DNA from: an uncultured Bacilli bacterium
Lineage (GTDB): Bacteria > Bacillota_I > Bacilli_A > RF39 > UBA660
Direction of reading: 5' to 3'
Assembly: GCA_934098485.1 (NCBI GenBank)
Contig: CAKOOH010000005.1
Span: 11,617 to 75,616, forward strand
Length of the DNA: 64,000 nucleotides
The stretch's first letter is position 1. Each line of letters opens with the position of its first letter. Shown here in pieces: positions 3,180-16,876 of this stretch. The translations under genes and the position numbers were made by a program. The notes below the pieces were generated by a model. It did not search any database and was not told the DNA's origin. It worked only from the letters and a program-made list of their open reading frames with translations.

Positions 3180-3719
3180 ATGAAGAAAAAAATTAGTATA
3201 TTTAGTTTATTATTACTTGTTACTATGTTATTTGGTTGTACAATGGGTAATACCCCTAAAGCAAAAGTTGAAACATTATTAAATAGGTATCAAAGCAAAG
3301 ATACTTCTGTTATTGGAGAACTAGATGATTATTTAAAAACTTTAACTATCGATGATACAAATTATGATGATTATAAAAATGTATATTTAAAACAATATGA
3401 AAATATGAAATATGAAATCAAAGATGAAAAAATAGATGGCGATAATGCTACTGTTGTTACTCAAATTGATGTATATGACTACTACAAAGTAGAGCAAGAT
3501 GTAAATAATTATATCGCTGAAAACCCAAGCGAATTTGCTGATAAAGGTATTTATAATCAAGAAAAAGCCTTAAAATATAAAATTGATAAACTAAACACAG
3601 CTAAAGATAAAGTACAATATACCATTACATTTAACTTAACTAAAGTAAATGATAAATGGACCATTGATACTTTAAGTACCGAAGATTTAGAAAAGATTCA
3701 TGGCACATACGCTCATTAA
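3180..3719 (+). CDS. Lipoprotein of unknown function
   Basis: Signal peptide with a lipobox (LLLLVTMLFGC). An AAGGAGAG ribosome-binding site lies upstream. Confidence 0.7.
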   Translation: MKKKISIFSLLLLVTMLFGCTMGNTPKAKVETLLNRYQSKDTSVIGELDDYLKTLTIDDTNYDDYKNVYLKQYENMKYEIKDEKIDGDNATVVTQIDVYDYYKVEQDVNNYIAENPSEFADKGIYNQEKALKYKIDKLNTAKDKVQYTITFNLTKVNDKWTIDTLSTEDLEKIHGTYAH

Positions 3720-6525: not shown

Positions 6526-7548
6526 ATGTATACAATAATTGATTATTTAAAATTTTATAGTAATGCTTCATTGAATGAAGTTAAATGGAATAATATTGAT
6601 AATCTAATGGCATCCATTATAGTTTATTTACCAGTTCCATCATTTAAAGAAAATAAAAGCATAAAAGAATTATCTGATTATACTACAAAAAATGAAGCAG
6701 ATATTCGTGGTTTCACGGAAACAAAAGCGGTCGAAATATTAAATATTATTAAAAATAGTAAAAGATATAAAAATATTACTATTTCTAACTTTATTAATAT
6801 TAAAAATGAAGACTCACAATTTGGTGCTTGTATCATCAAAACTGATCAAGAAAAAATTATTAGTTTTAAAGGTACTGATCGCTCTTTAATTGGCTGGCTT
6901 GAAAACTTTAGACTTATGTATGAATATCCCACTTATACCCAAAATCTAGCCATTAAATATCTAAATGATAATATATCTTTTATGGATAAAGATATTTATG
7001 TAGTTGGTCACTCTAAAGGTGGTAATCTTGCAATGGCAAGTGCCATGGAACTATCTGATTCAAAATTTAATAAGATAAAAAAAGTTTGTAATTTTGATGG
7101 GCCAGGATTTAAAAAACAAGAATATGAAAGTAAGAAATTTAAAAGATTAAAATCAAAACTCTTAAATGTCATTCCGACCGGATCCATTATTGGTACTATT
7201 CTTTATAATGATAACTATAAAGTTGTTTCAAGTAATGAATATGCTTTTGATGAACATCATCCAACATCATGGAAACTATTTGGTCAATACTTCGTCGAAG
7301 GTAAATTATCAGCCATCAGTAAACAATTTCATAAAAATACATCAGATGGATTAGAAACCCTAGATAAAGAAAAACTTAAAAAGACTATTGAAACAAGTTT
7401 TAAAAGTTTTGAAAAAGAATATTCAAGTGATTTTACCTCAATTTCCTTTAATGACATTAAAAACGTTTATACAAATATGAAAAATGTCGATCCCGAAATA
7501 AGAGATTATTTATTAGTTTTAATGGAAGAATTAATAAAATATTCATAA
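6526..7548 (+). CDS. Lipase-like alpha/beta hydrolase (DUF2974/Mbeg1-like)
   Basis: Nucleophile elbow GHSKGG (VVGHSKGGNLAMASAMEL). No signal peptide. Confidence 0.6.
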   Translation: MYTIIDYLKFYSNASLNEVKWNNIDNLMASIIVYLPVPSFKENKSIKELSDYTTKNEADIRGFTETKAVEILNIIKNSKRYKNITISNFINIKNEDSQFGACIIKTDQEKIISFKGTDRSLIGWLENFRLMYEYPTYTQNLAIKYLNDNISFMDKDIYVVGHSKGGNLAMASAMELSDSKFNKIKKVCNFDGPGFKKQEYESKKFKRLKSKLLNVIPTGSIIGTILYNDNYKVVSSNEYAFDEHHPTSWKLFGQYFVEGKLSAISKQFHKNTSDGLETLDKEKLKKTIETSFKSFEKEYSSDFTSISFNDIKNVYTNMKNVDPEIRDYLLVLMEELIKYS

Positions 7549-7663
7549 CTCGTTATTCTAGGGTAGCTATAGATTTCTAACTTAAAAAAATCATAATTTA
7601 CAAAATAATATAATTGTGTTACATTATTAATGTAAATTATTTAAAGAAAGGAGTGAGATTAAT

Positions 7664-7729
7664 ATGAAAAATTTACAAGTTATAAATAATGCAGAATTAA
7701 TCGCAACTCCTAACTTATTAAACTTTTAG
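7664..7729 (+). CDS. 21-aa upstream ORF (MKNLQVINNAELIATPNLLNF), a candidate leader peptide
   Basis: Strong ribosome-binding site AAAGGAGTGAG 7 nt upstream of the ATG. The ORF overlaps segment 1 of an alternative-pairing RNA structure. Confidence 0.3.
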   Translation: MKNLQVINNAELIATPNLLNF

Positions 7730-7755
7730 GAATATTCTTTTATGATAATAAAATT

Positions 7756-7782
7756 AATTCTGTATTATGCAGAATTTTTTTG
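7756..7782 (+). terminator. Intrinsic terminator/attenuator hairpin (AATTCTG-tattatg-CAGAATT + T7)
   Basis: 7-bp stem, 7-nt loop and a U-tract. Its 5' arm can alternatively pair with AATGCAGAATTAAT inside the upstream small ORF. Confidence 0.5.
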
Positions 7783-7797
7783 TTAGGAGGATTTTAA

Positions 7798-8247
7798 AAT
7801 GATAATAAAATTAAATTTTATGATAGGGCTGCTCTAGCTATAAAAAATAAAACAAAGAAAGTAGAAATTAGAGCAAATAAAGATAATAAAGAACATGATT
7901 ATAGTAAATTAAAAGAAAATGATATTATAGAGTTTAACAGTAAGAATTTAGGAATATTTTATGTAAAAGTTAAAGAAGTAAATCATTATGAAACACTTGA
8001 GGAATTATTTACTTTAGAAGGAACAAGATATACAACTTCATCTACTAATAATAAGGAAGAAGCAATCAAAAATGTAAGTAAATTAGATGGATATGAAGAT
8101 GCTATTAAGAAAAATGGCGTATACGCTGAATATGTTTTAGTAAATGTATTTGCTTATAATGAAAAAGCGATTAGATTTTATGATAGGCATGGATATCATT
8201 CAAGAATGTATACAAATATAAAGCAAATAATGAAAGATGGATTATAA
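7798..8247 (+). CDS. ASCH-domain protein (GxKxxExR-like motif KTKKVEIR) whose ORF lacks an in-frame canonical start. It is either expressed through a -1 frameshift from the ATG at 7799 or is a pseudogene.
   Basis: Stop-to-stop ORF of 149 codons with an ASCH-like N-region (FYDRAALAIKNKTKKVEIRANKD). A strong ribosome-binding site AGGAGG and the ATG at 7799 are in the +1 frame, which terminates after 12 codons. The heptamer A_AAT_TTT at 7813-7819 bridges the two frames. Confidence 0.5.
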   Translation, partial: NDNKIKFYDRAALAIKNKTKKVEIRANKDNKEHDYSKLKENDIIEFNSKNLGIFYVKVKEVNHYETLEELFTLEGTRYTTSSTNNKEEAIKNVSKLDGYEDAIKKNGVYAEYVLVNVFAYNEKAIRFYDRHGYHSRMYTNIKQIMKDGL

Positions 8248-8304
8248 TGATTATAATTAAAGAATTAAAAAAATACTTTTTTACATATTATAATAGGAGA
8301 AGTA

Positions 8305-10209
8305 ATGAAAATAATTGAATTAAAAGAAGCAAAAAATAATTGTGGTGGCAAAGCCTATGGATTATATAGGCTAATACAAGCAGGTATAAATGTACCTGAA
8401 GGATTTGTTATTGAAGACTCACAATCATTATCAAACGAAAATATTTCTGAATTAGAAAACAGATTAAAAGAATTAGATAAAAATGATAAATTAGCAGTTA
8501 GATCTTCAGCATCTAATGAGGATGGAAATATAAAATCATTTGCTGGAATCTTTGAAACAGTATTAAACGTCAAAAATGATATCAATGATGTTACAAAATC
8601 TATTAAAAAAGTAAATGATAGTGCTAATACTGATAAAACCAAGAATTATTCGAACAACAATTTCCAAATGAATGTCGTAGTGCAAAAAATGATAAACCCT
8701 AAAATATCAGGTATATGTTTTACAAATGTAATTGATTTCTCTGGTAAAAGATGTGTTATGTTTGAATATGTACAAGGAATTGGAGAAACATTAGTTAGCG
8801 GTAAATCAAATTCAAATAGAATAATTGTTAAATATAATAATGATAAATTAGATTATAACCATGCTAGATTAGAAGGAAGTTTAATAAACTTTACTGGTTT
8901 TGAAGCATTATGTAATTTGATAACTAAAGCAATTAACAACTATGATAAAAATCTAGATATAGAGTGGTGTATAGATGAAAACAATGTAGCATATTTATTA
9001 CAAGCAAGACCCGTAACAAAAGAAATATTTATTGAAAAGAGTAGTGATAGTAATAATACAAATACAATAGTTGCATCAAGAGGATGTGTTGAAGCCGAAA
9101 CATATGTAATTGATTCGAATTTAGACTATGAAAAAGTAAAATATGAAATAGAAAATTTTCCTGAGAATAAAATTTTAGTTTGTGATTATACAGAAACATA
9201 TTATCTTCCAGCAATGAAAAAAGCAAAAGGAATAATCACAAATACAGGCTCAGCTTTATGTCACGCGGCAATAGTATCAAGAGAATTAAACATCCCATGT
9301 ATTGTAGGATATGATAACGCAACAACAAAATTTAAAACCGGAACTCTAATCAAATTAGACGCTAATAACAACTCAATTTCTATAGGAAATGAAAACATGT
9401 TAGTATCAAAGGAATATAAATTAAACTTTGGAGAACTTGATTGTTTTGATAATTACATTGAAATTGTGATAGATAATACAAAGATATTTATCGAAAATAC
9501 ATTTGACGGAATATATGTTCATAAACCAGATAGATTAACTAATTCGGAAATTAATGAAATTGAAAAATTTGTTAGAAAAACATTTGGTCAAGTAGCAATA
9601 TTTTCATCAGATGAAAATAAATACTTATGGATTAAAGAAGTAAATCGTTTTCATAAATTACCTTATTTTTCAAAATATTATGAACATGTAAAAGATAGTG
9701 CAAAAAATTTTAATGAATCGAAATTAACTAAAATTCAAAAAAATTTAATTACAATGGCAAGCCAATATTTAACATATAAAAAGACATCAAAAGATACAAT
9801 ATTAAATATTTTTATAGATGAAATTATCGCGTCAATAAATGAAATATTAGATGGAATAATCCCCTTTGGATATCCTATGTATGAATCTTATGTTCAATCA
9901 TTACAATTATTAGAAAAAGAAGGAAAAACATATAATGATTTATTTGGACATATTTTATTTAAAAATGAAAAATTAATAAAAATTCAAAATTTCTTACACG
10001 CAGTTTCAAAAATAAAAGACGAAAGCTATCAAATTGTATGGGATATGGGAGGAAATGATCCGGATTATTTTGAAAAAAGAGATGAAAAAGTAAAACAAAT
10101 ATTAAATAAAAATAATCTTGACGAAGATTTTATGGACATATTTTATGAATTTTATCTTCCTAAATACTATGAAAAATTATTGGAGATAGTTGAAGAAAAC
10201 GAATTATAA
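8305..10209 (+). CDS. PEP-utilising enzyme family dikinase/phosphotransferase-like protein. It has an N-terminal PPDK_N ATP-binding region, a central mobile His domain and an unassigned C-terminal domain of about 300 aa.
   Basis: N-terminus GGKAYGLYRL...VPEGFVI matches the PEP synthase/rifampicin phosphotransferase ATP-grasp signature. The central NTGSALCHAAIVSRELNIPCIVG matches the PEP-utilisers phospho-His motif. Confidence 0.7.
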   Translation: MKIIELKEAKNNCGGKAYGLYRLIQAGINVPEGFVIEDSQSLSNENISELENRLKELDKNDKLAVRSSASNEDGNIKSFAGIFETVLNVKNDINDVTKSIKKVNDSANTDKTKNYSNNNFQMNVVVQKMINPKISGICFTNVIDFSGKRCVMFEYVQGIGETLVSGKSNSNRIIVKYNNDKLDYNHARLEGSLINFTGFEALCNLITKAINNYDKNLDIEWCIDENNVAYLLQARPVTKEIFIEKSSDSNNTNTIVASRGCVEAETYVIDSNLDYEKVKYEIENFPENKILVCDYTETYYLPAMKKAKGIITNTGSALCHAAIVSRELNIPCIVGYDNATTKFKTGTLIKLDANNNSISIGNENMLVSKEYKLNFGELDCFDNYIEIVIDNTKIFIENTFDGIYVHKPDRLTNSEINEIEKFVRKTFGQVAIFSSDENKYLWIKEVNRFHKLPYFSKYYEHVKDSAKNFNESKLTKIQKNLITMASQYLTYKKTSKDTILNIFIDEIIASINEILDGIIPFGYPMYESYVQSLQLLEKEGKTYNDLFGHILFKNEKLIKIQNFLHAVSKIKDESYQIVWDMGGNDPDYFEKRDEKVKQILNKNNLDEDFMDIFYEFYLPKYYEKLLEIVEENEL

Positions 10210-10639
10210 CTTATCAATCACAAATAAAAAATGAAGAAGAAAATTTTTGGTATAATATAAGAAGTATGAATTTACAATTGATTCAACTTTTAGTTTCGCC
10301 AATTAAGCCACTTAGACTATTTATTAAAATATAAAACATTGTATATTAAATTTGGACAGCATCTTTAATATTGATACTGTAATACCATCTAATTTAACTA
10401 AATCATCTTATTATGCTATTTATACCAGAAATGCCCAAAGTGATGATTATACTAATTTAAATTGTTATGTTTTTTACTATTCTAATAAAGCAGGTGATAA
10501 AAATATCCGAGTAGCTTTTTCCAATAATGGCACTCCAATAAGGGACTATCATTTTGATGAAAGTAGTGCGAAAAACTCAAATATTAATAATCATGATTTA
10601 TTAATTTATCAGTATAAAGGCATTATCAAATAATAAAAA

Positions 10640-10670
10640 AAGTAGTTAATTAGTTTTCTACTTTTTCTTT
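10640..10670. terminator. Bidirectional terminator hairpin (AAAGTAG...CTACTTT) between convergent ORFs
   Basis: Inverted repeat flanked by an A-run and a T-run. Confidence 0.4.
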
Positions 10671-10888
10671 TTTTTCGCTTTTAATTTGGCAATCGCATTT
10701 CGAACAAACTGCGCTTGGGTTAATCCTTCTTCTGCAAGTAACATATCAAGTTCTTTCTTTTCTTCTTTTTTTAAATTAATTTTAAGTGGTGAATAATGTT
10801 TTTTCTTATATTCATTTATATACTCATTTTGATTAAATTTCTTTTTTTCGTCTTTAGCCATTTTTAAATCTTCATCCTTTCTTTTCAT
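10658..10888 (-). CDS. Small ribbon-helix-helix (CopG/MobC-like) DNA-binding protein
   Basis: Lys-rich N-tail followed by LTQAQFVRNAIAKLKA, as in RHH proteins. The start is uncertain (the M at 10888 or 10861; the track extends to 10918). The 5' end lies inside the 53-bp direct repeat. Confidence 0.45.
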   Translation of the reverse strand: MKRKDEDLKMAKDEKKKFNQNEYINEYKKKHYSPLKINLKKEEKKELDMLLAEEGLTQAQFVRNAIAKLKAKKKKK

Positions 10889-10929
10889 AAGTATATCACA
10901 TTGGGAGGGTAGTGTCATTAAAATAATAA
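10877..10929. repeat. 53-bp perfect direct repeat, copy 1 (copy 2 at 12620-12672), bracketing the AbiE cassette
   Basis: Identical 53-nt string CTTTCTTTTCATAAGTATATCACATTGGGAGGGTAGTGTCATTAAAATAATAA at both positions. Confidence 0.9.
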
Positions 10930-11048
10930 CATCATGGATTGAAACAAAAGGATAAATTTAATATCACTACTAAAAAATAGTTTTTAAAAAGAGTAATTTT
11001 ATATTTAAAGTTTTTTTAATGAATGTGAGGTAAAAAAAGTTTTCAAGT

Positions 11049-11076
11049 ACACTTAAATGTGATAAAATTTAAGTGT
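11049..11076. promoter_or_regulatory. Perfect 10-bp inverted repeat ACACTTAAAT-n8-ATTTAAGTGT overlapping a TGTGATAAAAT -10-like element, a candidate AbiEi autorepressor operator
   Basis: Palindrome read directly, 16 nt upstream of the AbiEi start. Confidence 0.4.
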
Positions 11077-11091
11077 GAAAGGAAAAACGAT

Positions 11092-11679
11092 ATGGAATAT
11101 GAAAATAAAATTTTAAATTTATTTAAAAATGGTTATTTAATTACTAAAAATGTTACCGATAATAATATTCCTAGGATTTACCTTACTAAACTTATTAAAG
11201 AAAATAAAATAGAAAGAGTAAGTCGTGGAGTATATATTAAAAAGAATGTTTTAGTAGATGAATTTGTCGTATTACAAAGCAAAAGTAAATATGCCATTTA
11301 TTCTAATACAACAGCACTTTATTTACATGGACTTTCTAATAGAATTCCTATTAGATATGATATTACAATTAAAAGTGGGTATAAAGGTTCACTTCAAAAA
11401 GAAGATAATGTTAATTTATTTTATACAAAAAACGAATTATTAGATTTAGGAGTTATTAACTATAAACTAAATTCCGGTAATATTATTAAAGTTTATGATT
11501 TAGATAAAACTATTTGTGACATTATTAAAAATAAAAAGAAAATAGATGCAGAAATTTTTAATAAAGCTATTAGAGAATATTTTTATAGTCAAAAGAAAAA
11601 TACTTTAAAACTATATGAATATGCTAAAAAGATGAATATTTATAATAAGGTAAGAGATACTTTCGAGGTGCTTCAATGA
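11092..11679 (+). CDS. abiEi: AbiEi-family antitoxin/transcriptional regulator (type IV TA, abortive infection)
   Basis: N-terminal wHTH with the AbiEi-typical ...RVSRGVYIKK motif. The 4-nt ATGA overlap with the downstream toxin gene is typical of a TA operon. The ATG at 11092 has the ribosome-binding site AAAGGAAA. Confidence 0.7.
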   Translation: MEYENKILNLFKNGYLITKNVTDNNIPRIYLTKLIKENKIERVSRGVYIKKNVLVDEFVVLQSKSKYAIYSNTTALYLHGLSNRIPIRYDITIKSGYKGSLQKEDNVNLFYTKNELLDLGVINYKLNSGNIIKVYDLDKTICDIIKNKKKIDAEIFNKAIREYFYSQKKNTLKLYEYAKKMNIYNKVRDTFEVLQ

Positions 11680-12527
11680 TTAAAAATAGGGATAGTTTAA
11701 AAGCAAGAACGTCTAATTTAGCTAATAAAACTAATATTCCTAATAAATATTTAATTCAAAGCTTTATGTTTGAAGCTTTATTAAAAAGAATATCAATTTC
11801 TAAATATAAAGATAAATTTATAATTAAAGGTGGCCTCTTATTATCATCTATCTTTGGTGTAAACTTAAGAAGTACTATGGATTTAGATACCACTATAAAA
11901 GGATTATCACTGGATAGAGAAACCATTATTAAAGTTATTAATGATATTATTAGCATTGAAATAGACGATAATATCAAAATTGAAATAGAAAATATTAAAG
12001 ATATTAGAGAAGAAGAATTATATTCGGGTTTTAATGTCAATTTAAAAGCCGAATTCGATGGTTTGAAAACTAATTTAATGATTGATATAACTACAGGAGA
12101 TGTTATTACTTATAAAGAAGTTGAGTTTAAATATAATACCTTATTTGATAATGAAATCATCAATATTATGACTTATAATTTTGAAACTATACTAGCAGAA
12201 AAATTTGAAACAATAATTAGCAGAAATATAGATAATACTAGAATGAAAGATTATTATGATTTATATATGTTTGTTAATTTAAAATGGGATGATATTAATA
12301 AGGATACTTTAAGAAAAGCAATTATAAACACCGCTAAAAATCGTAAAACTTTAGATTACATAGATAATGCTAGTAAATATATAGAATTAATTAGTGATGA
12401 CTCAAGATTAAAATCTCTTTGGAATAGTTATAAAAGTAATTATGATTATGCAAAAAATATAGAGTTTGAAGATACAATATATGCTATTAAAACAATTGGC
12501 AAAATTGTTACATCAGTCGGAATTTAA
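11676..12527 (+). CDS. abiEii: AbiEii/AbiGii-family nucleotidyltransferase toxin (DUF1814)
   Basis: FIIKGGLLLSSIFGVNLRSTMDLDTT matches the GG...R.T.DLD nucleotidyltransferase signature of AbiEii. It is translationally coupled to AbiEi. Confidence 0.75.
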   Translation: MIKNRDSLKARTSNLANKTNIPNKYLIQSFMFEALLKRISISKYKDKFIIKGGLLLSSIFGVNLRSTMDLDTTIKGLSLDRETIIKVINDIISIEIDDNIKIEIENIKDIREEELYSGFNVNLKAEFDGLKTNLMIDITTGDVITYKEVEFKYNTLFDNEIINIMTYNFETILAEKFETIISRNIDNTRMKDYYDLYMFVNLKWDDINKDTLRKAIINTAKNRKTLDYIDNASKYIELISDDSRLKSLWNSYKSNYDYAKNIEFEDTIYAIKTIGKIVTSVGI

Positions 12528-12619
12528 GTGGTAAAAAGTGAAACTGGCTAAGAAAGAAACTAAAAACAACCTTCGAATATAAAAAACATATCATAAAATT
12601 AAAGAAGAAACGTAATCTT

Positions 12620-12672
12620 CTTTCTTTTCATAAGTATATCACATTGGGAGGGTAGTGTCATTAAAATAATAA
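12620..12672. repeat. 53-bp direct repeat, copy 2, carrying a 20-codon remnant of the RHH gene 5' end on the minus strand
   Basis: Identical to 10877-10929. Minus-strand translation gives MTLPSQCDILMKRKKITFLL*. Confidence 0.9.
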
Positions 12673-12774
12673 TGTAGTAATTTTAAAGTATATATATTAT
12701 TAATATAATGAAAAATACTAAGAATCATGGTATAATATTTCTAATTTAATTTGATAAATAAAGGAGGTATTTAA

Positions 12775-13587
12775 ATGGAAGAAATAACCTATAATAAAGT
12801 TGAAGATGAAAAAAGCCCCAAAATAAAACAGTTATATTGGGATATTGCCTTTGGTCTTCAAGACGTAGATGGATTAAAGCCATCTAAATATATGATTGAA
12901 TTATCAAAAGAACATATAAATGGGCAAAAAACGTATCATGAGGTTAAAGAAGAAATTACCTCTTATTATAAGATAAATTATGATAATCATGCTGACGATG
13001 ATGAAGAAGAAGCTGATGAAGTTTCTATCGCAATATACCAAATACTTAATAATAAATCTTTTAGATTTGATTATTTAACTTTAAAAAATTATCATCAAAG
13101 ATTATTTTGTAACTTAAATAAAGAAAAATATAATCCGGGCGTTTTTAGATTGTATAACATAACTAAAGACGAGCCAATTTTAAATGGTGATACAGTAAAC
13201 TATCAATCTTATGATATGATTGAAGAAACTTTAAAATATGATTTTAATGAAGAAGCGGCTCAAAATTATCTTGAGTTTACTGAAGAACAATTAATAAATC
13301 GTATTTGTGAGTTTACATCTAGAATATGGCAAGTACATCCTTTTCAAGAGGGTAATACAAGAACTACAGCTATTTTTATTCAAAAATATTTAAATAGCAT
13401 TGGATTTAAAGTAAACAACGAATTATTTAAAGATAATTCCCAATATTTTAGAAATGCTTTAGTAAGAGCAAATTACACAAATTATAGTAAAGGCATAAGT
13501 GCTGATACCAAATTCCTAAAAATGTTTTTTGAAAATTTATTATTATATAAAAATAATGAATTAAATAATGATGATTTAAAAATATAA
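12775..13587 (+). CDS. Fic/Doc-family protein with a degenerate active-site motif (HPFQEGNTRTT instead of HxFx(D/E)GNGRxxR)
   Basis: The Fic core motif is recognisable but with G-to-T and a missing second Arg. An extended -10 TGGTATAAT and the ribosome-binding site AAAGGAGG lie upstream. Confidence 0.65.
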   Translation: MEEITYNKVEDEKSPKIKQLYWDIAFGLQDVDGLKPSKYMIELSKEHINGQKTYHEVKEEITSYYKINYDNHADDDEEEADEVSIAIYQILNNKSFRFDYLTLKNYHQRLFCNLNKEKYNPGVFRLYNITKDEPILNGDTVNYQSYDMIEETLKYDFNEEAAQNYLEFTEEQLINRICEFTSRIWQVHPFQEGNTRTTAIFIQKYLNSIGFKVNNELFKDNSQYFRNALVRANYTNYSKGISADTKFLKMFFENLLLYKNNELNNDDLKI

Positions 13588-13639
13588 AAATCACATTTTT
13601 CCTTAAATATGCCGAAATTCTCTTTAAATTTTTCTAAAT

Positions 13640-13910
13640 TGTGCTATACTAAGTAAGTAAATCGAAGAAAAAGACAAGTAAAATTTAAACCGGCTTAAAG
13701 AGAGTCAAGATATGGTGGAACTTGATAGCACGTTAAATTTGAATAACACTTTGGAGTGATGTATTGAAAACTAGTAAATACATTCGTATAGATGCGTTAA
13801 ATCTTAAAGTGATCTACAAATGTAGATAAATTGGGTGGTACCGCGGAATTTAAACAGTGTTTCGTCCCTTGAGGATGATATACTGTTTTTTATATATAAA
13901 AGAAAGGAAA
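13640..13910 (+). ncRNA. T-box riboswitch leader of asnS
   Basis: Conserved T-box sequence AAATTGGGTGGTACCGCGG at about 13831-13849, followed by a terminator with a U-run (...CTGTTTTTT). An extended -10 TGTGCTATACT lies upstream. A candidate Asn specifier AAC is in GAATAACAC. Confidence 0.7.
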
Positions 13911-13917
13911 AAAAATT

Positions 13918-15306
13918 ATGGATTATGTATTTTTAAGCGATTTATACGCAAGTGAAAAAGAATATTTAGATAAGGAAGTAAAAGTAAAAGGTTGGATTAG
14001 AAATCATCGACCTCAAAAAGAATTTGGTTTTATTGATTTTTCTGATGGCACTTGTTTTAAACATTTACAAATTGTCTATACAAATAAACTAAGTGACTTT
14101 GACAAAATAACTAAATTACATAATGGTTCTAGTATTGAAGTAACTGGTGTATTTACTCATTCTGAAGGAAAAGGGCAAGACTATGAATTAAAAGCAAACT
14201 CTATTACTCTATTAGGTGACTGTGCTGAGGATTTTCCATTGCAACCTAAAAAACATAGTATGGAGTTTTTAAGAAACATTGCGTACTTAAGACCTAGAAG
14301 TAACACTTTTCAAGCCGTATTTAGAGTAAGAAGTGTTGCCGCTTTTGCTATTCACAAATACTTTCAAGAAAAAGGTTATATATATGTTCATACACCACTA
14401 TTAACAACTGCTGACTGTGAAGGCTCAGATCAAATGTTTAAAGTAACCACTTTAGATTTTGATAACTTACCAAAAACTGAAGATGGCAAAGTGGATTTTA
14501 GTAAAGACTTATTCAATAAAAAAACCTTTATAACTGGCTCTGGTCAATTACATGGGGAAACATTTGCCCTAGCATTTAGTAAAATTTATACTTTTGGTCC
14601 TACTTTCAGAACTGAAAACTCTAATACAAAAACTCACGCTAACGAGTTCTGGATGATTGAACCAGAAATTGCTTTTGCTGACATTAATGATTTAATGGAC
14701 ATTGAAGAAGACTTCTTAAAATATATTGTTAAATATGTCCTAGATACATGCCCAGATGAAATAGATTTCTTTGATAAATTCGTTGAACCAGGCTTAAAAG
14801 AAAAATTAGAAAAAGTTATTAGCAGTAAATTTGTAAGAATAGACCATAAAGACGTTATTGATTTACTAAAAAACAGTGGCGAAAAATGGGAATTTACTCC
14901 TGACTATGATGATGACCTTGCTAAAGAACACGAAAAATGGCTAACAACTCATTTTAATGGCCCTGTTTTTGTTAAAAACTGGCCTAAAGACATTAAAGCA
15001 TATTACATGAAATTAAACCCTGATGGCAAAACTGTTGCGGGAGTTGATTTAGAAGTTCCTGGTGCTGGTGAACTTATTGGTGGCTCTCAAAGAGAAGAAG
15101 ACCTTGAAGCACTACAAAAAAGAATGAAAGAAATGAATGTTGACGAGTCATTAATCGATTGGTACATTAACTTAAGAAGATACGGAACTTGTGTTCACTC
15201 AGGCTTCGGCATGGGCTTCGAAAGATTAATTATGTATATAACAGGTATGACAAACATTAGAGACGTATGTCCATATCCTAGAACCCCAGGTAGTTGCTTA
15301 TATTAG
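13918..15306 (+). CDS. asnS: Asparaginyl-tRNA synthetase
   Basis: Class IIb aaRS. The C-terminal motif-3 region GFGMGFERLIMYITGMTNIRDV and an N-terminal OB-fold anticodon-binding region are present. Confidence 0.95.
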   Translation: MDYVFLSDLYASEKEYLDKEVKVKGWIRNHRPQKEFGFIDFSDGTCFKHLQIVYTNKLSDFDKITKLHNGSSIEVTGVFTHSEGKGQDYELKANSITLLGDCAEDFPLQPKKHSMEFLRNIAYLRPRSNTFQAVFRVRSVAAFAIHKYFQEKGYIYVHTPLLTTADCEGSDQMFKVTTLDFDNLPKTEDGKVDFSKDLFNKKTFITGSGQLHGETFALAFSKIYTFGPTFRTENSNTKTHANEFWMIEPEIAFADINDLMDIEEDFLKYIVKYVLDTCPDEIDFFDKFVEPGLKEKLEKVISSKFVRIDHKDVIDLLKNSGEKWEFTPDYDDDLAKEHEKWLTTHFNGPVFVKNWPKDIKAYYMKLNPDGKTVAGVDLEVPGAGELIGGSQREEDLEALQKRMKEMNVDESLIDWYINLRRYGTCVHSGFGMGFERLIMYITGMTNIRDVCPYPRTPGSCLY

Positions 15307-15442
15307 AAGATAACCTTAAATTATCTTCTTTTTTTGTTTTTGCATCTAGTAACCTTGATTTTTAGCGCCTTCGGTAGTAAAATCTTAATAACATTTATAA
15401 ATAATAATAACTTAAATATTAATTTTCTTAGGGGGAGTTTAT

Positions 15443-16876
15443 ATGGCGAATATCACACTACAAGATTTAATTAATAATATTAAATCTTACAATAAGGAAG
15501 AAGTAGAAATAATCAAAAAAGCCTATTACTATGCAGAAAATTTGCATGCCGGTCAGTATCGCCAAAGTGGGGAGCCTTACATAACCCATCCTTTAAATGT
15601 TGCCTATATACTTAGTCAAATGCACGCTGATAGGGACACCATAATCGCCGCTTTACTCCACGACACCCTAGAAGATACTTCTGCGACGCTAGAAGATATT
15701 CATCATGAATTTAATGATACCATCGCTCATTTAGTTGATGGTGTTACTAAACTTTCCAAAATGAATTTTTCATCTAAACAAGAAAGAAATGCTGCTAACA
15801 CCCGTAAAATCATAACAAGCATAACTGAAGATGTTAGAATTATCATAATTAAACTAGCCGATCGCCTTCATAATATGCGCACCTTAGAATTTAAATCTTC
15901 TGCCAAGCAAAAAGAAAATGCTCTAGAAACTCTCGAAATATTTGTCCCTCTTGCTTACTATATTGGTGCTTATAATCTAAAAAGTGAATTAGAAGATTTA
16001 TCATTAAAATATTTAAATCCCGACGACTATCAAAGAGTCAGTGAAAAACGGGCTTTAATTGAAACCAAATATGAAAGTATTTTAAAAGAAATGCTCGAAA
16101 ATATCGACTTTTTATTAAAGCAAAACAAAGTGCCTCATGAAATAAAAATGCGTCTTAAAAATCTTTATGGCATTTATAAATCTCTTATAAGTGGCGTGAA
16201 ACTAAATGACATCCATGACTTAGTAGCCTTACAAATCATGGTAGAAACAGTAAACGATTGCTACCGAACTTTAGGCCTAGTTCATCAAATATATCATCCT
16301 ATCAATTATGAATTTAAAGACTATATTTGCAATCCTAAACCTAATATGTATCAGTCTTTGCATTCAAATCTATATGTTCCAACAAATCATATTGTGCAAG
16401 CCCAAATTAGAACCTTTGATATGGATAAAATTGCCTCATATGGTCTTACCGCTTACTGGGATAAACTAAAAGGCAAAGCCAGAGATGCCATGCAAGAAGA
16501 CTTACGAACTAAATTTAAATTTTTTAAAACTTTAACTGAAATTGATGAGACTTTTTTAGATAATGCTGACTTTGTAAGCCAAGTTAAAAAAGAACTACTA
16601 TCTGGTACCATCTGTGTTTACACTTCATCTGGAAAATCCATTGAAATGCCACTAGGTTCTACCGCTATTGACTTTGCTTACAGCCTAAGTACTGATATTG
16701 GTGATACTATGGTAGGTGCCGTTATTAATGGTAAAACAATGCCTGCTGATACCGTTTTACAAAATGGTGATTACATAAAAATCATAACCGATGCTATGTC
16801 ATTTGGCCCTAAAAAAGGCTGGGTAGATAAAGTTATAACTACGGCTGCCCACCGAGAACTAATTAAATTTAAATAA
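15443..16876 (+). CDS. Short RelA/SpoT-homologue (HD hydrolase + synthetase-like + TGS domains, 477 aa, no C-terminal regulatory domains)
   Basis: HD motifs (YITHPLNVAYIL, ALLHDTLEDT). Synthetase-like region YQSLHSNLYVP...QAQIRTFDMDKIASYGLTAYW. TGS domain ICVYTSSGKSIEMPLGSTAIDFAY. Confidence 0.8.
   Translation: MANITLQDLINNIKSYNKEEVEIIKKAYYYAENLHAGQYRQSGEPYITHPLNVAYILSQMHADRDTIIAALLHDTLEDTSATLEDIHHEFNDTIAHLVDGVTKLSKMNFSSKQERNAANTRKIITSITEDVRIIIIKLADRLHNMRTLEFKSSAKQKENALETLEIFVPLAYYIGAYNLKSELEDLSLKYLNPDDYQRVSEKRALIETKYESILKEMLENIDFLLKQNKVPHEIKMRLKNLYGIYKSLISGVKLNDIHDLVALQIMVETVNDCYRTLGLVHQIYHPINYEFKDYICNPKPNMYQSLHSNLYVPTNHIVQAQIRTFDMDKIASYGLTAYWDKLKGKARDAMQEDLRTKFKFFKTLTEIDETFLDNADFVSQVKKELLSGTICVYTSSGKSIEMPLGSTAIDFAYSLSTDIGDTMVGAVINGKTMPADTVLQNGDYIKIITDAMSFGPKKGWVDKVITTAAHRELIKFK

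Follow-up and report, generated by a model that had tools for sequence, protein, structure and literature searches.

The AbiE systems of Lactococcus pNP40 and Streptococcus agalactiae are overlapping bicistronic operons with an inverted repeat in the promoter. They encode a winged helix-turn-helix protein, AbiEi, and a DUF1814 nucleotidyltransferase (NTase), AbiEii, with the motifs I–IV, and they are carried on mobile elements or in defence islands (Dy et al., 2014; PMC3985639). AbiE has been classed among the toxin-antitoxin systems of type IV (PMC3985639); this label is in flux, since a 2026 preprint reclassifies it as type VII on account of an AbiEi-induced auto-phosphorylation of the toxin (10.64898/2026.01.19.700257). 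The operon considered here shares these features and lies in a stretch of 64 kb (~28% G+C; hereafter the window) of contig CAKOOH010000005.1, from an uncultured Bacilli bacterium, where it stands between two identical 53-bp direct repeats next to a ribbon-helix-helix (RHH) gene. These repeats are most likely a recombination scar and not the ends of a mobile cassette. In the favoured reading, which is given a probability of about 0.55, a fragment of a foreign defence island was captured once, by illegitimate recombination, at the edge of the RHH promoter, whereby ~58 bp of the target were duplicated, and the resulting allele now segregates by ordinary recombination.

The features that carry this reading are the following, in coordinates of the window:

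10658–10861, minus strand: RHH gene, 67 amino acids (aa), CopG/RepB-RCR_reg-like and phage-related (PF10723, 22.6 bits; cutoff 21).
10877–10929, minus strand: first copy of the 53-mer, the RHH promoter and 5′ untranslated region (5′-UTR), with the -35 box ATGACA at 10918–10913 and the extended -10 box TGATATACT ending at 10890.
10930–11032, plus strand: dead 3′ end of an E2-like gene of a cyclic oligonucleotide-based antiphage signalling system (CBASS) with its downstream spacer, the left end of the foreign fragment, from the alignment to positions 3249–3359 of locus L077.
11040–11076, plus strand: abiE promoter and putative AbiEi operator, TTTTCA, 17 nt, TAAAAT with TG (11040–11068).
11092–11679, plus strand: abiEi, 195 aa, by family the antitoxin and autorepressor (PF13338; PADLOC AbiEi).
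11676–12527, plus strand: abiEii, 283 aa, by family the DUF1814 NTase toxin (PF08843; PADLOC AbiEii).
12536–12581, plus strand: dead 5′ stub of hsdM of a type I restriction-modification (R-M) system, with ATG changed to CTG and followed by GCTAAGAAAGAA; it aligns with the hsdM start found 3′ of abiEii in loci L033, L074 and L079.
12581–12610, plus strand: fic-like scrap of 30 nt, codons 51–60, identical at 26 of 30 positions to the resident fic gene (12926–12955).
12614–12672, minus strand: second copy of the 53-mer with 5–6 extra nt of the RHH 5′-UTR, a second RHH promoter pointing leftward into the 3′ end of abiEii.

A first-pass annotation, made from the sequence alone, had assigned the gene pair to AbiE, and this identification holds against the PF13338, PF08843 and PADLOC models alike. 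AbiEi contains an RVSRGVY motif and matches PF13338 (AbiEi_4) with 26.5 bits (cutoff 25) and the PADLOC AbiEi model PDLC02225 at 1.2e-62 over residues 1–194 of 195; AbiEii matches PF08843 with 129.8 bits (2.1e-37) and the PADLOC AbiEii model at 3e-91. The AbiEi of the family combines an N-terminal winged helix-turn-helix of the COG5340/AbiEi_4 kind with an antitoxin domain at the C-terminus, in accordance with the matches seen here. The antitoxin gene comes first and overlaps the toxin gene by ATGA. All four NTase motifs, as defined for the S. agalactiae toxin and found essential there by mutagenesis (PMC3985639), are present in AbiEii: G52-G53, followed after 15 residues by D69-L-D71 with R65; K176...R183; and K191-DYYD. 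In that definition, motifs I/II read G[GS]x15DhD with an Arg, motif III K..R and motif IV +DxxD. The residue preceding GG is a lysine and not hydrophobic. A perfect 10-bp inverted repeat (ACACTTAAAT, 8 nt, ATTTAAGTGT; 11049–11058 and 11067–11076) overlaps the -10 box of the abiE promoter, is conserved in AbiE modules from other contexts and is probably the site for AbiEi autorepression; S. agalactiae, in contrast to this single repeat with its 8-nt spacer, has two 23-bp repeats. Based on the model matches, the motifs, the operator-like inverted repeat and the ATGA overlap, the pair appears to be a canonical AbiE abortive-infection/toxin-antitoxin operon in every feature that sequence can address. 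AbiEii would accordingly be a growth-arresting DUF1814 NTase, which AbiEi would neutralise while repressing the operon. The toxin would be set free on phage infection.

The 53-mer (CTTTCTTTTCATAAGTATATCACATTGGGAGGGTAGTGTCATTAAAATAATAA) is present in two identical copies, at 10877–10929 and 12620–12672, as the first-pass annotation had reported. A third copy is absent from the 64 kb at up to three mismatches, where shuffled sequences lead one to expect none, and the 18-nt core of the repeat is confined to the same two sites. The two copies bracket the intact abiEi/abiEii operon, and the unique part of the insert amounts to 1,690 bp. The repeat had been taken for a duplicated 5′ end of the RHH gene, the second copy of which was thought to carry a dead remnant of 20 codons. 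The minus-strand open reading frame (ORF) can indeed be read as 86 aa. The true start, however, is Met-20 (MAKDEKKKF, window 10861), since the orthologue in a sister species (L031, ~87% identity) and the phage homologues all begin at the equivalent methionine. The gene thus encodes 67 aa, the supposed remnant is an artefact of the over-extended ORF, and the 53-mer lies wholly upstream of the start, 16–68 nt from the ATG. Read on the minus strand, it consists of ATGACA, 17 nt and TGATATACT, which matches the sigma-70 consensus at 10 of 12 positions with an extended -10 box, and it gave the best match, at both copies, in a scan of the region for promoter-like sequences. Furthermore, a phage promoter, TTGACATTGTCCCCCCAATGTGATATACT, located upstream of an operon of a 37-aa ORF and an RHH gene, is visibly homologous to the core of the 53-mer, ATGACACTACCCTCCCAATGTGATATACT. 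The position upstream of the RHH start, the consensus match and the homology to a phage promoter together identify the 53-mer as a duplicated, evidently phage-derived promoter and 5′-UTR, and not as the end of a coding sequence. The second copy, with its extended -10 box and the same 10/12 match, is aimed into the 3′ end of abiEii, and no terminator-like site is predicted in 10600–12800. It could drive antisense transcription of the toxin-antitoxin operon, possibly under the control of the RHH protein.

The RHH family is tiny, with 19 homologue clusters in 5.8 billion proteins. Seven clusters were inspected for their context. Two of them (the 100% cluster and that of L031, P0242) are chromosomal and derive from this same locus, adjoining AbiE or directly asnS, and the other five, which are all those from other organisms, lie in phages or prophages, where the gene stands beside the lysis module. 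An integrase (tyrosine or large serine) is located on the opposite side wherever the contig extends that far, and the 37-aa ORF is found between RHH and integrase in four of these five phage contexts, no such ORF being called at the P0250 loci. The one RHH relative found in IMG/VR belongs to a phage. The 37-aa ORF is conserved between promoter and RHH (called in L050 and L052, readable but uncalled in L059, L060 and L063) and is missing in the lineage of the window. A reverse transcriptase (RVT_1, ~350–400 aa), suggestive of diversity-generating retroelements, is encoded between the genes for lysis and tail in these five phage or prophage loci with RHH homologues.

An empty site with a single 53-mer had been predicted and is found in four independent assemblies of the same species (L032, L047, L048 and L049), all of which have RHH, one 53-mer, Fic and asnS. 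L032, a metagenome-assembled genome (MAG) from Hadza samples that is 95–99% identical to the window, shows the gene order PPDK-like gene, DUF gene, RHH, one 53-mer, Fic and asnS. Window positions 10615–10929 and 12620–16000 map to this contig with an overlap of exactly the 53-mer, and the filled allele exceeds the empty one by exactly 1,743 bp. The other three assemblies, from other samples, have the same empty structure. Exact look-ups of the window's proteins yield filled alleles only, by construction; the empty sites were found through a scan for DNA patterns and through 99%-identical Fic variants. The junctions are as follows, the second being predicted for an insert excised between the repeats:

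Empty site: ...AAATCTTCATC, 53-mer, TGTAGTAATTTT...
Circle junction: ...ACGTAATCTT, 53-mer, CATCATGG..., also written ...GAAGAAACGTAATCTT, 53-mer, CATCATGGATTG...

It is scarcely credible that the empty sites or the repeats are artefacts of assembly, through collapsed repeats or chimeric contigs. Some k=31 Logan contigs are indeed cut off precisely at the repeat (L008 begins at 12620), but the reads, like the final k-mers of MEGAHIT and SPAdes, are longer than 53 bp. Moreover, the filled structure is found with both 53-mers intact in more than 20 assemblies, and the four empty ones come from different samples and assemblers and carry linked single-nucleotide polymorphisms (SNPs) in their flanks (12744G; 10667A or 10826G/12682C).

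The ends of the insert are pieces of genes. On the left, window 10932–11029 aligns with the last ~20 codons and the downstream spacer of the E2-like gene of L077 with a score of 57, against a genomic null with a mean of 14 and a maximum of 27. The source gene encodes a 170-aa protein, PADLOC 'E2', and follows NucC and the cyclase; the copy in the window is dead, given its stop codons and a small deletion. At the left joint, promoter end and E2 remnant overlap by ~2 nt (AA). The island in L077 (1139–6251) is compact and comprises a NucC-like nuclease, a CD-NTase cyclase and a minimal E2-like protein (CBASS), then directly AbiE, and finally an AAA_14/DUF4143 ATPase (PDC-S01, 1.5e-161). On the right, the hsdM stub is followed by the fic-like scrap, in which all four differences from the resident gene are G to A. 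The scrap scores 22 against a maximum of 19 in 2,831 random windows of 813 nt, and of the 120 best homologues only those of the resident Fic lineage have its KTYH signature. Between the scrap and the second 53-mer lie ACG and then 5–6 nt of RHH 5′-UTR, which read TCATC+TT in L015 and AATCTT in the window. In L015, the more basal filled haplotype, the duplication accordingly measures 58 nt (TCATC and the 53-mer) with a 2-nt TT insertion. Taken together, the insert is a piece broken at random out of a foreign defence island; the outermost gene on either side is cut short, and the right junction is made up of several pieces. Such an anatomy is the signature of illegitimate, microhomology or template-switch joining and not of a cassette with defined termini.

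Other sources had been considered for the left filler. Its similarity to the 5′ end of abiEi is not significant, and that to the spacer of L031 is marginal (shuffle p = 0.015) and gave way to the decisive match with the 3′ end of the L077 E2 gene. It is also collinear with the upstream region of Fic and terminates in GAGGTA, at the place expected of the ribosome-binding site of Fic. This collinearity bears on a further scenario, in which the promoter, the Fic upstream region and fic codons 1–60 were first duplicated in tandem, the larger part of the first copy then giving way to the AbiE fragment; a scrap of codons 51–60 directly left of the second 53-mer is what such a history would leave. 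The resemblance to the Fic upstream region is not significant, however (p = 0.1–0.3), the unequal divergence of scrap and 53-mer argues against a single duplication, and the L077 match largely refutes the scenario, which is left with very little probability.

The AbiE core (~11040–12490) has relatives with 76–92% DNA identity in ~40 other loci, in at least three contexts:

Serine recombinase, KAP NTPase, AbiE, type I R-M: L033–38, L074 and L079.
YolD, AbiE, penicillin-binding protein (PBP): L039–46 and L073.
CBASS, AbiE, PDC-S01: L077.

The 53-mer is present at none of these other AbiE loci, and the homology of the modules breaks off at variable points, which lie between 10928 and 11058 at the left end and between 12490 and 12581 at the right end. 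Among 185,579 species genomes (one per species), a 24-nt core of the 53-mer was found in two contigs, once in each and both times at this orthologous locus, and a 20-mer core was found in no contig of the metagenome collection. The idea that the repeats might flank other cargo elsewhere is thus not borne out in either collection. Of the two signs of a simple local duplication that the first-pass annotation had named, the confinement of the repeats to one locus is seen here, and the lack of an empty site is not. DNA of positions 10640–12780 has no match among the INPHARED phages and only distant AbiEii genes as matches in PLSDB (68–79% identity over 4–13% of the query), which leaves no plasmid donor; AbiEii relatives in IMG/VR viral contigs reach 42–43% identity at most. 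The 53-mer contains no inverted repeat and no attC-like structure, and no matching terminal inverted repeats for the insert are among the pairs reported for 9000–15000. The first-pass annotation had seen no integrase inside the insert. In agreement with this, the Pfam annotations of the neighbouring genes reveal no recombinase, whether inside the insert or in the ~10 kb to its left and right.

These searches bear on the proposal that the 53-mer is att-like and that the 1.74-kb segment would be mobilised in cis as a cassette lacking an integrase, in the manner of cis-mobilisable elements (CIMEs) or integron cassettes. A recombinase would insert and excise it in trans, for example an integrase of the phages that carry the homologous RHH/promoter module. 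Such a cassette would account for the perfect direct repeats, for the precise empty sites and for the occurrence of both states in both flank clades (see below); the RHH/promoter block is, moreover, phage-related and lies next to the integrase/attP region in phages, and three different sequences meet the same end of the promoter block within 1 nt. The proposal is nonetheless improbable, as the 53-mer is confined to this locus and this cargo, the insert ends in truncated genes instead of conserved element termini, AbiE modules elsewhere lack the repeat, the neighbouring cargo Fic is not flanked by it and a recombinase is missing within ~10 kb. A weaker point is that the phage att junction, placed by where the upstream sequences of L050 and L063 stop matching, would be located upstream of the -35 box at a distance of ~120 nt, past a terminator hairpin and hence outside the promoter. 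Of the earlier proposal of a defence cassette inserted site-specifically or by an att-like duplication, with regeneration of its target, the insertion/deletion polymorphism with its empty sites remains. The site-specific or att-like part is not supported, the ends being ragged and the repeat being a promoter unique to the locus.

The distal flanks of the locus define two clades, which are 3–12% diverged from asnS onward. The core from RHH to Fic diverges by ≤0.4%, far below the distal flanks, and this uniformity indicates that homologous recombination carries the islet from one background to another. Filled L015 and L025 cluster with empty L032 and L047, and empty L048 and L049 share the derived 13404T, 13441A and 13620A with filled L011, L018 and L019. 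The nearest SNP of the right flank, 12744G, is common to all empty alleles and L015. Filled alleles from across the clades differ at four sites in 1.69 kb, and, judged by the outgroup modules, two of the changes are derived on each side, a pattern that would fit a single origin of the filled allele. The population data require no site-specific recombinase.

Dense SNP tracts are found inside abiEii or abiEi in two strains, L021 (window-equivalent 11797–12056) and L003 (11332–11517). These tracts equal AbiE alleles from other loci, at 20 of 20 sites those of the YolD-AbiE-PBP type (L039/L073) and at 16 of 16 those of the KAP-AbiE-hsdM type (L033). AbiE copies of different loci or hosts evidently trade sequence by gene conversion, as judged from these tracts.

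Under the favoured reading, a piece of ~1.65 kb would have been torn from a foreign island of the type CBASS (NucC-cyclase-E2), AbiE, type I R-M. A single illegitimate recombination event of the microhomology type would then have placed it in the spacer between RHH and Fic, precisely where the RHH promoter has its distal edge. Repair of the right junction may have copied a short fic-like scrap and then copied once more ~58 bp of the target, that is, the RHH 5′-UTR and promoter, so that the direct repeat would be a by-product of this repair. The empty alleles would represent the state before insertion, still segregating in the species, and the two states would be exchanged or lost by homologous recombination, through the flanks or between the repeats, with no dedicated recombinase.

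Several observations weigh against a capture of this kind. G/C sites are changed at 4 of 8 positions in the fic scrap and at 0 of 15 in the 53-mer (Fisher p ~0.008), so that the two are not simply of the same age, unless the scrap was copied in an error-prone manner or the second 53-mer is constrained. Constraint on the 53-mer is not to be read from comparison within the species, where the strains are 99.2–100% identical across the region. The promoter block of the sister species L031 has its end at this very nucleotide and is followed by 16 nt identical to the start of abiEi (TATGGAATATGAAAAT). The 62-nt spacer that precedes the asnS promoter there (L031:1895–1956) aligns to the first ~50 nt of abiEi with a score of 27 (shuffle p = 0.004), which no genomic window reached. 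This stub suggests an older, recurrent or independent AbiE occupant at the same boundary that was later deleted. Furthermore, both states occur in both distal-flank clades (L015/L025 and L032/L047; L048/L049 and L011/L018), a distribution that calls for later recombination or for more than one event and would be compatible with an active site-specific system too. Finally, precise empty sites are indistinguishable from precise deletions between the repeats, and the direction, insertion or deletion, is therefore not proven.

The divergence of the scrap and the stub in L031 would find an explanation if the filled allele were a recombinant of two islet alleles, with the second promoter arriving on one of them instead of being duplicated in situ. 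Here, an older allele A (RHH, promoter, E2 remnant, AbiE, hsdM stub and a decaying fic) would have received a fragment of an allele B (promoter, Fic upstream region, Fic and asnS), for which homology on the asnS/fic side provided the anchor, whereas its left end was joined illegitimately, inside the old fic. This accounts for a scrap that lies immediately left of the second copy and is more diverged (4/30) than the 53-mer (0/53), and an imported 53-mer would be identical too, the 53-mer being identical in all strains. It would also accommodate the abiEi-like sequence directly after the promoter block of L031, and the origin of arrays at variable loci through homology-facilitated illegitimate recombination is documented (PMC5361080). 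Allele A itself, with AbiE, no second promoter and the rest of fic, was not found in ~30 assemblies, however, and the 5–6 extra nt of RHH 5′-UTR and the small junction indel fit a copy made in situ equally well. Such a recombinant is on balance unlikely, though it is the main rival of the favoured reading.

The stub of L031 also touches on a different idea. Three different partners abut the end of the promoter block within 1 nt, namely the E2 remnant/AbiE fragment, the Fic module and the abiEi-like stub. From this convergence and the abiEi-like 16-mer after the promoter block of L031, it may be conjectured that the distal edge of the RHH promoter is a recurrent, nucleotide-precise capture site, a relic phage recombination site still cut in trans by integrases of related resident phages. 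We regard this as doubtful. Were it the case, the 58-bp duplication could record a staggered or att-type event, and the second, RHH-controlled promoter antisense to abiEii could act as a built-in attenuator.

To the right of the insert, the following features complete the islet and its border:

12708–12736, plus strand: Fic promoter, a promoter match.
12775–13587, plus strand: Fic-domain gene (PF02661; PADLOC candidate defence system PDC-S72 at 5.3e-80), present in filled and empty alleles.
~13638–13650: asnS promoter, TTGTGCTATACT, with the T-box the fixed right edge of the islet.
13656–13872, plus strand: T-box leader (RF00230, 143.6 bits).
13918–15306, plus strand: asnS (Pfam annotation tRNA-synt_2), with the T-box the islet's fixed right border.

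Between the RHH promoter and the asnS leader, the islet exists in at least three states: no cargo in L031, where RHH and the promoter block are followed directly by the asnS promoter and T-box with neither Fic nor AbiE; Fic in the empty alleles; and AbiE with Fic in the window. The cargo is defensive in nature (AbiE and Fic/PDC-S72). A related gut bacterium (L066) has Fic as well, there as a module of promoter and coding sequence (homology over 12760–13588 only, 85%) whose surroundings are unrelated, and no close relative of Fic was found in IMG/VR viral contigs. A role of RHH as the antitoxin of Fic was considered and rejected, since Fic has its own promoter and occurs without RHH elsewhere, and since phages and L031 have RHH but no Fic beside it.

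The region upstream of RHH (window 6526–10633) varies between strains as well. A 149-aa gene is present or absent there and is replaced by a dCMP-deaminase-like gene and an acetyltransferase in L015 and L025 and by a PEMT-like gene in L026, L012 being variable too. The ORF downstream of RHH has 93 aa in the window and 124 aa in clade-B strains, with an indel of ~90 bp at ~10618. The L031 contig (CAVIQT010000074.1) was deposited in a 'Phocaeicola vulgatus' MAG. It carries an asnS 88% identical to that of the window, RHH and a PBP5-type carboxypeptidase at low G+C; as these genes and the low G+C match the Bacilli organism, the contig is probably mis-binned.

As to the organism, L032 is titled 'uncultured Bacilli bacterium', and an AbiEii with 92% identity comes from a MAG of Candidatus Coprovivens, which is placed in Bacilli incertae sedis. 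The close matches all stem from human gut metagenomes, mainly of Hadza and other non-industrial cohorts.

The AbiE system itself is of an already-known type and sits in a small variable defence islet. If the favoured reading is true, the locus would provide a clean natural case of a single defence operon chipped from a large island into an islet beside a phage-derived anchor, with every junction readable (CBASS stub, R-M stub, fic scrap and duplicated promoter) and with AbiE copies at different loci shown to keep exchanging sequence. Though unsurprising, such a case would be of use for models of defence-island turnover. It also cautions annotators that long perfect direct repeats together with an empty site are insufficient to call a mobile cassette. 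Only a relic att capture point or a promoter-driven antisense control of the toxin, if true, would open something new.

CIMEs, as in ICESt1/CIME of Streptococcus thermophilus, and integron cassettes are integrase-less cargo bounded by att or attC repeats. The locus shares with them a recombinase-less cargo between direct repeats and a precise empty site. It differs in that its repeat is unique to the locus, its cargo ends in ragged gene fragments, an attC-like structure is lacking and no integrase was found within ~10 kb. In contrast to transposons, insertion sequences and miniature inverted-repeat transposable elements, the insert has no matching terminal inverted repeats and is present in a single copy, and a duplication of 53–58 bp is, to our knowledge, far longer than known target-site duplications. 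The insert, which neither recurs nor has conserved ends nor comes with a recombinase, lies outside every known cassette or transposon family.

A closer likeness is seen to arrays built by homology-facilitated illegitimate recombination, such as the immunity arrays of the type VI secretion system of V. cholerae (PMC5361080) and the Rhs orphan arrays, where, as in the window, a module is added beside an anchor and truncated leftovers remain at the junctions. Here, however, the anchor (58 bp) has itself been duplicated, which is not the usual outcome, and the pathway is one read from sequence. The defence hotspots of prophages and satellites, in turn, span 1–5 kb beside conserved phage anchors (Rousset et al., 2022; PMC9122126). 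The window has a slot of 0–2.7 kb beside RHH and its promoter, and the cargo turns over likewise, from nothing in L031 to Fic/PDC-S72 in the empty alleles and AbiE with Fic in the window. In contrast to those hotspots, the anchor is an isolated, phage-related gene of the chromosome and not part of an intact prophage, three states have been seen, and the turnover has left a duplicated promoter behind. With three of its states sampled, the locus thus behaves like the small defence hotspots beside conserved phage genes.

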